Part shown: in pieces, positions 50,178 through 52,115 of the stretch
How the letters are laid out: each line of letters starts with the position of its first letter
Position numbering within the stretch: position 1 is the stretch's first letter
Position numbers and translations under genes: made by a program
Virus genome (UHGV): UHGV-0240317
Strand: one strand, 5' to 3'
DNA: 64,000 nt
Origin: a virus
The notes under the pieces: generated by a model
Database searches by the model: none
Told to the model about the DNA's origin: nothing
Seen by the model: only the letters and a program-made list of their open reading frames with translations

Positions 50178-50205
50178 TTGACATAGGAAATTTGGTGAGT
50201 ATACT
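50178..50205 (+). promoter_or_regulatory. sigma70-like promoter
   Basis: TTGACA - 16 nt - TATACT just downstream of the ligase stop. Confidence 0.6.
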
Positions 50206-50229
50206 GAGCAGCATAAACCAACGGGTACT

Positions 50230-50590
50230 CACCAGCATCACTTAAGAGTCTTTTAAAAGGGTTTTTAAGTAATGTGATGTTTGGTTTGGTGTGGTCAGGT
50301 AATGTGATGTCTGGTTTAGTGCGGTGATGTGCGGTCCGGTAAGGTCCGGTGCGGTAAAGTGCGGGTAGTTAGTCTCAGCTACATTAAAATGAGACTTACC
50401 TTTTTAAAAGGTCTTTAAGAGGGTCTTTTAATAAGGTGCTGTATGGTAAGGTGATGTCTGGTGTGGTAGGGTGAGGTTAAGTGAAGTGAAGTGAGGTGAG
50501 GTATGGGTGGATGGTAGTAGCCACGTTAAAAATCTACCAAGTTTCTAAAGAGTCTTCTGTTGAGGGTTCTTTACAAACAACTTAACAATC
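50230..50590 (+). repeat. GT-rich structured repeat array 1
   Basis: AAGAGTCTTTTAAAAGGGTTTTTAAG-type motifs, GGT-rich tracts, hairpin 50363-50400, terminal hairpin 50513-50538. Confidence 0.7.
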
Positions 50591-50614
50591 AACTAAAGTG
50601 TGGAGCTAAATGCT

Positions 50615-51202
50615 ATGAAACTGTTAAATATCAAAATCACTGGTACTCGTCCTTTCTTGAGCCATAACGATACGCTGTCAGACCCATTAAACCCTCTGAC
50701 AAAATATCACAAGTCCCTGTCCAGTAAACGTAAAAAGACTGACGAAGACTATGCGCTCTTAGCAGAAAGTCAACTGGTAACTTCTTGTTACTACGATGAG
50801 CAGCTAGGTTTTGTTATGAACGGCGAGATGATTGAGGCTTGTATCAAGTCTGGTGCAAAACTCAACAAACTTGGTAAGGTAATTGACCGAGCCATTATGC
50901 TGACAGATGTAGTCTTCCCAATGACTATCAAGAACTGCCCAGCAAACCCACAAGAACTTGCTAAGAATCCAGACTTTATCTATGCTAAATCTGTTAAGAT
51001 TGGCACAGCACGAGTTATGAGCTACCGTCCAATCTTCCGTGACTGGTCTGTAGAGTTTGGTTTGATGTTCGATGAAGAGCAAATCACCAAAGAAGAACTC
51101 CTGATGGTTCTGGAAAATGCTGGCAACCTTTGTGGTGTAGGTGATTGGCGTCCACGCTTTGGTCGTTTTTCTGTAGAAGTTATTTCAGAAGGTAACGTTT
51201 AA
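50615..51202 (+). CDS. hypothetical protein
   Basis: ATG at 50615 with GGAG RBS; track ORF begins at an upstream GTG. Confidence 0.6.
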
Positions 51203-51204
51203 TT

Positions 51205-51645
51205 ATGAATACAAAAGCATTAGCAGCAAAGTTTAGTTATGGTGACACTGTATCACACTCTGAGATGGACACCTTCTTAGGTATTGTGAAGCCAACTTAT
51301 CAAGGTGACATTGTTAAGTACGAAGATGAAATGAAGGCTTATGCGCTTACACGTCTAAACCGACTTGAGAAGTTTATTGAGAAGCTTCTTAAAGAAGAGA
51401 AGATTTATCTGGTTGCTTCAATGGGTGTTGGTTATCGTGTGGTTGAACCTAAGCATCAAGCAACTATTGCAAAACGCAAAATGTCTGGTAAGATTGGTCG
51501 TGCTTTAAAGCAAGCCACTCAAGCTATTGAGAATGTGAACACTATGGCACTTAGTCATCAAGAACGCTCACGACTGATTGAACAGCAAAACCATTTAGCT
51601 GCTATGAAAGCTAACATTAACAAGCAACGTAGAAAACCTTTCTAA
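51205..51645 (+). CDS. hypothetical protein
   Basis: ORF directly after the previous gene. Confidence 0.6.
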   Translation: MNTKALAAKFSYGDTVSHSEMDTFLGIVKPTYQGDIVKYEDEMKAYALTRLNRLEKFIEKLLKEEKIYLVASMGVGYRVVEPKHQATIAKRKMSGKIGRALKQATQAIENVNTMALSHQERSRLIEQQNHLAAMKANINKQRRKPF

Positions 51646-51654
51646 GTTGACTAG

Positions 51655-51680
51655 GTAGCCTCTTCGGAGGCTCCTTTTTA
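51655..51680 (+). terminator. rho-independent terminator
   Basis: AGCCTC-ttcg-GAGGCT followed by T-run. Confidence 0.65.
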
Positions 51681-52075
51681 AAAGGTCTTTAAGAGGGTCT
51701 TTTAATGAGGTTTGGTATGGTCAGGTATGGTGTGGTGTTGTAAGGTTTGGTGCGGTCAGGTTAGGCTTGGTATGGGTAGTTAATCGGAGCTACATAAAAA
51801 TCCGATTACATCACTTAAGAGTCTTCTAAGAGGGTTTTTAAGTGGTGTTTGGTAGGATAGAGTAAGGTAAGTTAAGGTAGGGTGAGGTCTGGTATGGTAA
51901 GGTAATGTATGGGTAGTTAATCGGAGCTACATAAAAATGAGACTCACATCACTTAAGAGTCTTTAAAAAGGGTTTTTAAGTGTTGTGAGGTGATGTAAGG
52001 TCGGGTATGGCTATGTCTTGTATGGTTTGGTATGGAAGGATGGCAGTAGCCTTATAAAAAATCTGCCAAATAAGC
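51681..52075 (+). repeat. GT-rich structured repeat array 2
   Basis: same unit as array 1; hairpins at 51773-51808 and 51910-51946; terminal hairpin 52041-52067. Confidence 0.7.
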
Positions 52076-52086
52076 TATAAAATCTG

Positions 52087-52115
52087 TTGACAGTTCAGGT
52101 GTTATAGCTTATTTT
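52087..52115 (+). promoter_or_regulatory. sigma70-like promoter (weaker -10)
   Basis: TTGACA - 17 nt - TATTTT upstream of 52154. Confidence 0.4.

Follow-up and report, generated by a model that had tools for sequence, protein, structure and literature searches.

VIPR (Viral Interference Programmable Repeat) is a CRISPR-like system of RNA-guided DNA silencing that was first described in 2026, in preprints from one group (10.64898/2026.04.26.720920; 10.64898/2026.04.26.720927). Here we describe a locus at 50178-52119 of a 64,000-nt stretch of the virus genome UHGV-0240317 (the whole stretch is called the window below), which we assign to type II VIPR of the SUSP1 clade with a probability of roughly 0.93. 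In the described systems, each vrRNA consists of 9-16 YNNGG repeats followed by a 3' pseudoknot tail, and a vap gene adjoins vipr; the protein Vipr is a minimal Cas7-related RAMP that sequesters GGY and presents NN, and a gapped R-loop/triplex silences transcription (10.64898/2026.04.26.720920; 10.64898/2026.04.26.720927). In phage SUSP1, small-RNA sequencing revealed discrete vrRNAs of ~100 nt, one of them 5' and three 3' of vipr-vap, most natural targets (18 of 20) were located on an E. coli satellite, and changing the NN bases alone redirected silencing to a new DNA target; the same work supplies vrRNA expression and size, ribonucleoprotein formation, the filament/triplex structure, silencing and the effect of vap1 (10.64898/2026.04.26.720920; 10.64898/2026.04.26.720927).

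The locus of the window shares with SUSP1 the YNNGG tracts, the classes of pseudoknot tail, the slot between ligase and downstream early genes, and apparently also the kind of element targeted in nature, namely a satellite of E. coli that carries genes for a baseplate and a tape measure and is read with a 1-nt skip. It differs in minor ways, in having 2+3 vrRNAs compared to 1+3 in SUSP1, in its NN repertoire, in a 20-repeat composite guide and one chimeric tail, and in belonging to a Felixounavirus, whereas SUSP1 is a Suspvirus. With a Vipr identity of >90%, the locus probably falls within the published definition of the SUSP1 clade. An earlier note on this DNA, made from the sequence alone, had found the architecture unlike any described phage element; this was true until April 2026, but VIPR is now a described kind of system and the window adds no new kind.

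Two other systems invite comparison. As in class 1 CRISPR-Cas, where Cas7/Csm3 proteins have the same fold (RRM core, G-loop and thumb), a RAMP polymerises on a guide with periodic base flipping, and the variable guide carries a conserved, structured handle as its cap. In contrast to CRISPR, with its 6-nt periodicity, VIPR has a 5-nt periodicity, sequesters three guide bases and skips one target base per unit, and is a phage-encoded silencing system with a non-contiguous guide. The window contains neither cas1/cas2 nor a repeat-spacer array; no CRISPR-type array was found in it, and the conserved neighbours of the arrays are vipr and vap only. The ToxI RNAs of type III toxin-antitoxin systems and the pseudo-ToxI repeats of phages are likewise tandem pseudoknotted RNAs in phage-host conflict, but ToxI units are 36-45 nt long without a pentamer code, their partner is an endoribonuclease toxin, and no DNA is targeted. 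A type III antitoxin mimic was therefore rejected, as unit size and partner do not fit.

Guide RNAs and Vipr

The window derives from a Felix O1-like myophage of the genus Felixounavirus. For its region 50100-52200, 231 phage records were found with identities of 80-99%, and these come almost exclusively from Ounavirinae of Escherichia, Salmonella or Shigella. The locus is located between the ligase gene and the dihydrofolate reductase (DHFR)/thymidylate synthase genes and comprises five composite units, two 5' and three 3' of the open reading frames (ORFs) 50615-51202 and 51205-51645. Each unit runs from a head hairpin through 12-20 pentamers in a 5-nt register (NN-GG-Y) to a 36-nt tail, as follows:

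50236-50398, vr1 unit, upstream array
50399-50540, vr2 unit, upstream array
51673-51809, vr3 unit, downstream array
51812-51946, vr4 unit, downstream array
51950-52069, vr5 unit, downstream array
50266-50365, + strand, vr1 guide tract, 20 pentamers NN-GGY, 11 strict GGY
50433-50507, + strand, vr2 guide tract, 15 pentamers
51707-51776, + strand, vr3 guide tract, 14 pentamers, 12 strict GGY
51839-51913, + strand, vr4 guide tract, 15 pentamers, degenerate, 8 strict GGY
51977-52036, + strand, vr5 guide tract, 12 pentamers
50363-50398, + strand, vr1 3' tail, H-type pseudoknot, S1 GUAG/CUAC, S2 AGUCUCA/UGAGACU, A-rich L3
50505-50540, + strand, vr2 3' tail, pseudoknot, S1 GUGG/CCAC, S2 GGUAG/CUACC
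51774-51809, + strand, vr3 3' tail, pseudoknot, S2 AAUCGGA/UCCGAUU
51911-51946, + strand, vr4 tail, chimera with an S2 5' arm of vr3 type (AAUCGGA) and a 3' arm of vr1 type (UGAGACU)
52034-52069, + strand, vr5 3' tail, pseudoknot, S1 AAGG/CCUU, S2 GGCAG/CUGCC
50615-51202, + strand, vipr, 195 aa, predicted minimal Cas7-like RAMP polymerising on vrRNA
51205-51645, + strand, vap1, VIPR accessory protein, 146 aa, starting 3 nt after vipr

The features reported in the earlier note, including the bracketing of the two ORFs by the arrays, were all recovered in place; the number of units, given as "five to six", is five. The view that the arrays merely flank two unknown genes did not hold up, as the genes encode Vipr and vap1 and the arrays are best read as their guide RNAs; that the variable bases make up a targeting code had likewise gone unnoticed. 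In Rfam, no curated covariance model fits region 50100-52200 (best match E=1.9). The literature on Felix O1 and wV8 notes simple direct repeats only, and the PhageMaP paper on Felixounavirus Bas63 is silent on them.

The tracts had been characterized as 60-80 nt of almost only G and T; they are GT-rich, but they measure 60-100 nt with a G+T content of 0.72-0.81. The information in them lies in the 5-nt register, which is unbroken throughout all five, and not in the base composition. When 82 distinct tracts with a total of 966 pentamers were compared, 76% of the pentamers had G at position 3 and 98% at position 4, and position 5 was T in 90% and C in 10%, with the figures for positions 4 and 5 (including the 100% Y) inflated by the filter used to select the tracts, while positions 1-2 (NN) were near random and uniform. 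No further GGT array with a 5-nt period was found on either strand of the 64 kb.

The sequence analysis further showed that a single H-type pseudoknot accommodates all four types of tail in a gapless alignment, in which columns 3-6 pair with 17-20 (S1), columns 9-15 pair with 28-34 (S2), and L3 is A-rich; the S1 and S2 variants are those given in the list above. The arms AGTCTCA/TGAGACT and ATCGGA/TCCGAT, which the earlier note had described as hairpins, do pair, and the compensatory change between the terminal GGTAG/CTACC and GGCAG/CTGCC is present, but each hairpin is only half of the larger pseudoknotted fold. Across 24 distinct tails, standard pairs filled 92.8% of the paired cells compared to 27-35% when the 3' partners were slid, and two-sided changes were seen in 9 of the 11 pseudoknot pairs, a count that is supportive and not a probability because the four tail classes represent few independent events. 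One S2 position runs from G-C through G.U to A-U in relatives (UCCGAUU, UUCGAUU, AAUCGAA/UUCGAUU), indicating that the structure belongs to the + strand RNA. The proposal of structured non-coding RNAs on the + strand was borne out by the covariation and the G.U series, and tails, heads and pentamer register are kept across related phages. The tail pseudoknot of SUSP1 has been resolved by cryo-electron microscopy (10.64898/2026.04.26.720927). A Rho rut site on the antisense (ACCNN)n found no support, since the G.U pairs put the function on the + strand RNA.

We also considered if the locus could be an R-loop or G-quadruplex replication origin, as T4 oriF/oriG or ColE1. The position among replication genes, between the ligase and DHFR/thymidylate synthase genes, the strong promoter P1 ahead of a G-rich non-template strand, which would prime replication, and a GG every 5 nt, which could form two-tetrad G-quadruplexes, are in line with such an origin. 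However, an origin would not account for the 5-nt register and the Y that follows GG, for the covarying pseudoknot stems with G.U pairs, for the occurrence of the arrays together with a RAMP gene across phyla, or for the target matches described below, and E. coli satellites and unrelated phages carry the same arrays in non-replication contexts, making an origin a highly improbable explanation. The idea, conceived by analogy with immunoglobulin switch regions, was dropped because register, Y, pseudoknot and the link to Vipr are unexplained by it.

Identification of the 195-aa protein supports the VIPR assignment. A profile of its family matched PDB entry 36pp_D, 'SUSP1 Vipr protein', over residues 1-189 (E=1.4e-80), 36pp being the one solved structure matched by the profile. 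Vipr of the window is 97.9% identical to the Vipr proteins of SUSP1 and SUSP2, and vap1 is 99.3% identical to the gene after vipr in the same two phages. The AlphaFold2 model of Vipr (pLDDT 93, pTM 0.85) was compared to the PDB with Foldseek, where the top 30 matches were all Csm3/Cas7-type subunits (probability 0.99-1.0, TM ~0.5); on this model, Vipr has a RAMP fold related to Cas7. Residues H17, K33, E71, M72, R138, C173, D177, W178 and R179, which read GGY and the skipped base (10.64898/2026.04.26.720927), are present at the same positions in the window, this check covering those residues of the structural preprint that could be checked; position 175 is V in the window, compared to the T175 named by the preprint. 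The Vipr family has at least 520 members of ~190 aa, with no Pfam domain and a conserved G-rich C-terminal motif. Neither cassette protein matched Pfam, and PHROGs lists both as function-unknown, with vap1 belonging to PHROG 5926. Since the protein is a RAMP and not a Rep, iterons around an initiator gene, as in P1 repA, were rejected.

IMG/VR was scanned for six repeats of GGTNN, which yielded more than 120 stretches, and 110 unrelated loci were classified. Many matches were long, heterogeneous, non-coding (NNGGY)n arrays on unrelated contigs, often paired ~1.2-1.4 kb apart. When the 195-aa protein of the window was compared by tblastn to the loci found by DNA pattern alone, 21 matched. A hidden Markov model (HMM) of Vipr matched the examined DNA of 25 of the 37 loci with heterogeneous arrays, of none of the 16 plain microsatellites, and of one of the 57 loci without an array. 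This co-occurrence indicates that, even in phages distant from each other, arrays and protein belong to a single system. The IMG/VR contig 3300029288_001872 (189 kb, jumbo-phage-sized; loci L074-L078) carries many heterogeneous (NNGGT)n arrays, those of L078 being spaced ~1.2 kb (10109, 11452, 12666, 13818, 13921). No homolog was detected with the Vipr HMM in the examined stretches of this contig; either vipr is located elsewhere on it, or it is of a more divergent type.

The pentamer pattern also resembles the binding sites of TRAP, which consist of conserved triplets with 2-nt variable spacers, one triplet per protein subunit. We therefore considered if a ring or filament protein on a (GGUNN)n leader could control a hairpin and U-run, and thereby read-through in cis. 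Triplets at a 5-nt period with free spacers, a structure after each tract with UUUUU after the first, and a protein that does polymerise on repeats according to the preprint would all fit. TRAP, however, is an unrelated protein fold that acts in cis on its own transcript through spacers devoid of information, whereas the NN bases are not free spacers, as those of vr1-vr3 match satellite genes under a specific skip rule. Moreover, the pseudoknots that form the tails have large loops and stems rich in A and U, unlike intrinsic terminators, and for the partner, a RAMP, a structure with guide and target has been solved. Given the target information in the NN bases and a RAMP as partner, we rejected the attenuator, which we regard as barely credible.

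Satellite targets and the proposed mechanism

The satellite was located through its own vrRNA tail. A vrRNA-like tail occurs, in unannotated DNA, in 151 of 5,426 complete E. coli genomes, and belongs to an element of ~12 kb (for example 4929-16900 of locus L154 from E. coli EC12, also L155-L162); strains S40 and 2014EL-1345-2 are further carriers. A search by homology to the baseplate hub gene of the window did not lead to the satellite, the ORFs tested being rIIA, rIIB and metabolic genes. The satellite encodes serine recombinases, baseplate and tape-measure genes and, in some variants, an HNH endonuclease or a Dam-type methylase. It is integrated at yecE (DUF72), near ymdF/rutG or near tonB/yciI, and several copies are disrupted by insertion sequences. 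It has a single vrRNA with a phage-type pseudoknot tail, one variant adding a further compensatory change in S2, and no vipr homolog was found in it. Presumably, the satellite parasitises Felix O1-like phages.

The five guides were scanned against nine satellite variants, drawn from the 151 genomes with a match, under skip rules of 0-3 nt, where a skip of 1 nt means that NN pairs are read and every third target base is skipped (NNx). With the 1-nt skip, vr2 matched a satellite gene annotated as 'transposase' at 25 of 30 NN positions (0.83), and vr3 matched a gene for a hypothetical protein of 184 aa at 24 of 28 NN positions (0.86), with 12 consecutive NN perfect. The vr1 tract holds a 30-nt internal duplication (Tandem Repeats Finder: 50269-50325, period 30), and it gave two perfect matches of 18/18 nt; repeats 11-19 matched the tape-measure gene of the satellite, and repeats 2-10 matched a 'transposase'-like gene (235 aa) of other satellite variants. 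Judged by its sequence, vr1 is thus a composite guide that looks like a fusion of two guides, and a putative natural two-target guide with each half directed at a different satellite gene. The predicted target sites are 7673-7716 of L155 for vr2, 10373-10413 of L159 for vr3, and, for the two halves of vr1, 8602-8660 of L154 and 8107-8165 of L159. Scores did not exceed 13 with skip rules 0, 2 and 3, or 14 with shuffled guides, compared to the observed 18-24, and the skipped base was the codon wobble position in the matches of vr1-vr3. No self-target of at least 0.8 was found in the 64-kb window, the best NN match outside the arrays being 0.60-0.71, with ~24 kb of the genome lying outside the window. 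Taken together, the guides of the window phage appear to be aimed at an E. coli chromosomal satellite.

By analogy with SUSP1, promoter P1 would transcribe vr1, vr2, vipr and vap1, with vr3-vr5 lying beyond the vap terminator. Each vrRNA would be a tract of YNNGG pentamers capped by its 3' pseudoknot, on which one Vipr protomer per pentamer would assemble into a helical filament that buries GGY and exposes NN. The string of NN bases would then pair with one strand of the double-stranded DNA target, skipping every third base (usually the codon wobble), and the gapped R-loop/triplex would block transcription, an effect that vap1 would boost. For the window phage, vrRNAs of ~100 nt that co-purify with Vipr and silence their targets are predicted from SUSP1. 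The earlier note had conceived of one GU-rich transcript of ~220 nt, which is at odds with the discrete ~100-nt vrRNAs of SUSP1, each consisting of guide and tail.

Several observations weigh against the VIPR assignment. Strict GGY is found in 46 of the 76 pentamers of the window, the first GGY base often being U or A, and the 20 repeats of vr1 exceed the reported range of 9-16. The vr4 guide gave only a weak 17-nt match with its 5' half, out of codon register and close to where the recombinase gene of the satellite ends, and vr5 had no target in the nine satellite variants. The vr4 tail is a non-pairing chimera, as the earlier note had recognized at 51910-51946; its S2 cannot form because the arms come from two tail classes, and among all loci examined it was seen in the window only. 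A terminator separates vap from vr3-vr5, which might arise by read-through or from promoters in the head boxes. Finally, that the RNAs of the window phage would be expressed, processed and active as in SUSP1 is extrapolated from that phage. Regarding the degenerate pentamers, the preprints mention a "frequently observed internal degeneracy" of the repeats (10.64898/2026.04.26.720920; 10.64898/2026.04.26.720927).

Some of the same observations would be expected if the arrays of this phage were decaying remnants, or recombination hot spots shuffling vipr-vap, with non-functional guides. Besides the degenerate GGY of many pentamers and the chimeric vr4 tail, the number of units varies from 1 to 5 among relatives, about half of which have lost vipr-vap, and the cassette is 98-99% identical to that of SUSP1 compared to 33-88% for its neighbours. 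On the other hand, vipr and vap are intact and the contact residues are all kept, four of the five tails are intact, vr2 and vr3 keep satellite matches of at least 0.8, and recombination and function are compatible. We therefore consider this reading very unlikely, while vr4 is probably a defective vrRNA that arose by recombination between units. Recombination between units, which the earlier note had suspected from the chimeric tail, is further supported by the 1-5 units among relatives and by presence or absence of the cassette. Recombination hot spots of a Chi-like or RecA-preferred GT-rich kind are not needed as an explanation, although inter-unit recombination clearly happens.

Control elements and other features of the window

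The following elements accompany the units of the VIPR locus:

50178-50205, + strand, promoter P1, sigma-70-type TTGACA-N16-TATACT, 11/12 match, before the upstream array and the vipr-vap operon
50239-50272, + strand, head hairpin type A before vr1, CACUUAAGAGUCUU...AGGGUUUUUAAGU, with G.U pairs, minimum free energy (MFE) -9.7 kcal/mol, z -3.3
50399-50436, + strand, head hairpin type B before vr2, CCUUUUUAAAAGGUCUUUAAGAGGGUCUUUUAAU, MFE -11.3 kcal/mol, z -2.1
51673-51710, head box type B before vr3
51657-51680, + strand, intrinsic terminator after vap, AGCCUCUUCGGAGGCU and U-run, the U-run overlapping the type B head of vr3
52068-52119, + strand, promoter region P2, TTGACA at 52087, predicted to drive downstream genes, outside VIPR proper

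The strong promoter that had been read at 50178-50205 and the TTTTT directly after the first (vr1) tail are both present, and P1 is kept in all relatives, including those without vipr. The tail type of vr2 is the one found directly 5' of vipr in all relatives.

The type A head box also precedes vr4 (51812-51844) and vr5 (51950-51982), and the head boxes fold into hairpins of 12-15 bp with several G.U pairs (z = -2 to -4). They sit between each tail and the next tract, and the vrRNAs of the satellites do not have them. In addition, a weak promoter, TTAAAA-N17-TTTAAT, can be read in the type B box, ending just 5' of the tract. The head hairpins may serve as processing sites, as terminators or insulators, or as promoters; we found no discussion of them in the preprint text. 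Antitermination of the nut/boxA kind was also considered, as GGUCUUUAA resembles boxA, and was rejected because this motif forms the arms of the head hairpins.

Downstream of the arrays, a 19-nt inverted repeat at 52068-52114 (AAATAAGCTATAAAATCTG / CAGGTGTTATAGCTTATTT, 89% complementary) brackets the -35 hexamer of P2 and looks like an operator, and a gene with a Cro/CI-type helix-turn-helix (52720-53049) lies 600 nt 3' of it. Two further regions of the window, 8208-8307 and 8793-8866, hold intergenic tandem repeats with periods of 11, 22 and 31 nt, such as CTTAACAATCTCTTAAAAGGTCTAACACATT, and share the word TTAAAAGGTCT with the type B head box; this word is possibly a recurrent regulatory motif of the phage.

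Elsewhere in the window, a group I intron (Rfam RF00028, 62.3 bits) at 46957-47240 splits the DNA polymerase gene and is the sole Rfam match at gathering level. The polymerase thus reads as two ORFs of 737 and 184 aa (44847-47060 and 47290-47844), compared to a single ORF of 906 aa in the relative ASO1B, and an HNH-type endonuclease ORF (47845-48381) follows directly. Within the ORF at 535-1917 (460 aa), a 249-nt unit is repeated in tandem 2.3 times at positions 1324-1899 (70% matches), in keeping with repeats at the level of protein domains.

Relatives, orphan units and cassette exchange

Among relatives, the flanks, heads and tails of the units are near invariant, while the NN bases and the number of pentamers vary freely; after an A-type head, nearly all differences in tract length between phages are multiples of 5 nt. 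The cassette itself is not always present. While 231 records match the array, 118 have the 195-aa gene at an identity of at least 90%, and ~113 of the 231 have the array only. In 7 of 23 fully covered intervals from ligase to the next gene, both cassette genes are absent, yet one or two units are kept.

Complete units without vipr and vap were found in phages Si3 (L004, 2436-2717) and EC6 (L005, 2436-2708) and in loci L011, L012, L015, L031 and L038. Such an orphan unit, between ligase and the next gene, has P1 and a head hairpin, followed by pentamers and a pseudoknot that is still intact. The units of Si3 and EC6 have identical flanks but differ completely in their guide tracts, and their guides gave no match of at least 0.8 in five satellites. 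We speculated if the orphan vrRNAs could act in trans, exploiting or titrating the Vipr protein that a VIPR-positive phage brings into the same cell, a role that could also apply to the one vrRNA of the E. coli satellites, which have no vipr. At present we consider this doubtful, though less so than any of the alternatives to VIPR discussed above; if true, an orphan vrRNA would amount either to a parasite made of a guide only or to a decoy against VIPR. We found no mention of vipr-less orphan units, of a composite guide like vr1 or of a chimeric tail like that of vr4 in the text of the VIPR preprints.

Comparison of the window to SUSP1 (L016) gave identities of 97.9% for vipr and 99.3% for vap, compared to 88% for ligase and 33%, 63% and 77% for the three downstream genes. 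Since the identity of the cassette is far above that of its flanks, these values suggest that vipr-vap was exchanged recently and horizontally between phage genera, plausibly through recombination in the flanking arrays.

In conclusion, the window offers a textbook example of VIPR, a pre-CRISPR-like way of recognising DNA by guide RNA that was reported only recently. What the locus adds to the published account is confirmatory in three respects, as it is recognisable from raw sequence alone, the link between protein and arrays was re-derived independently from a scan for a DNA pattern, and, when read with the published code, guides from a second phage genus match the same family of satellites. 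The orphan vrRNAs, the composite guide, the chimeric tail, the identity of the cassette and the hairpins between units could in turn bear on how VIPR repertoires evolve and on the countermeasures of competitors.

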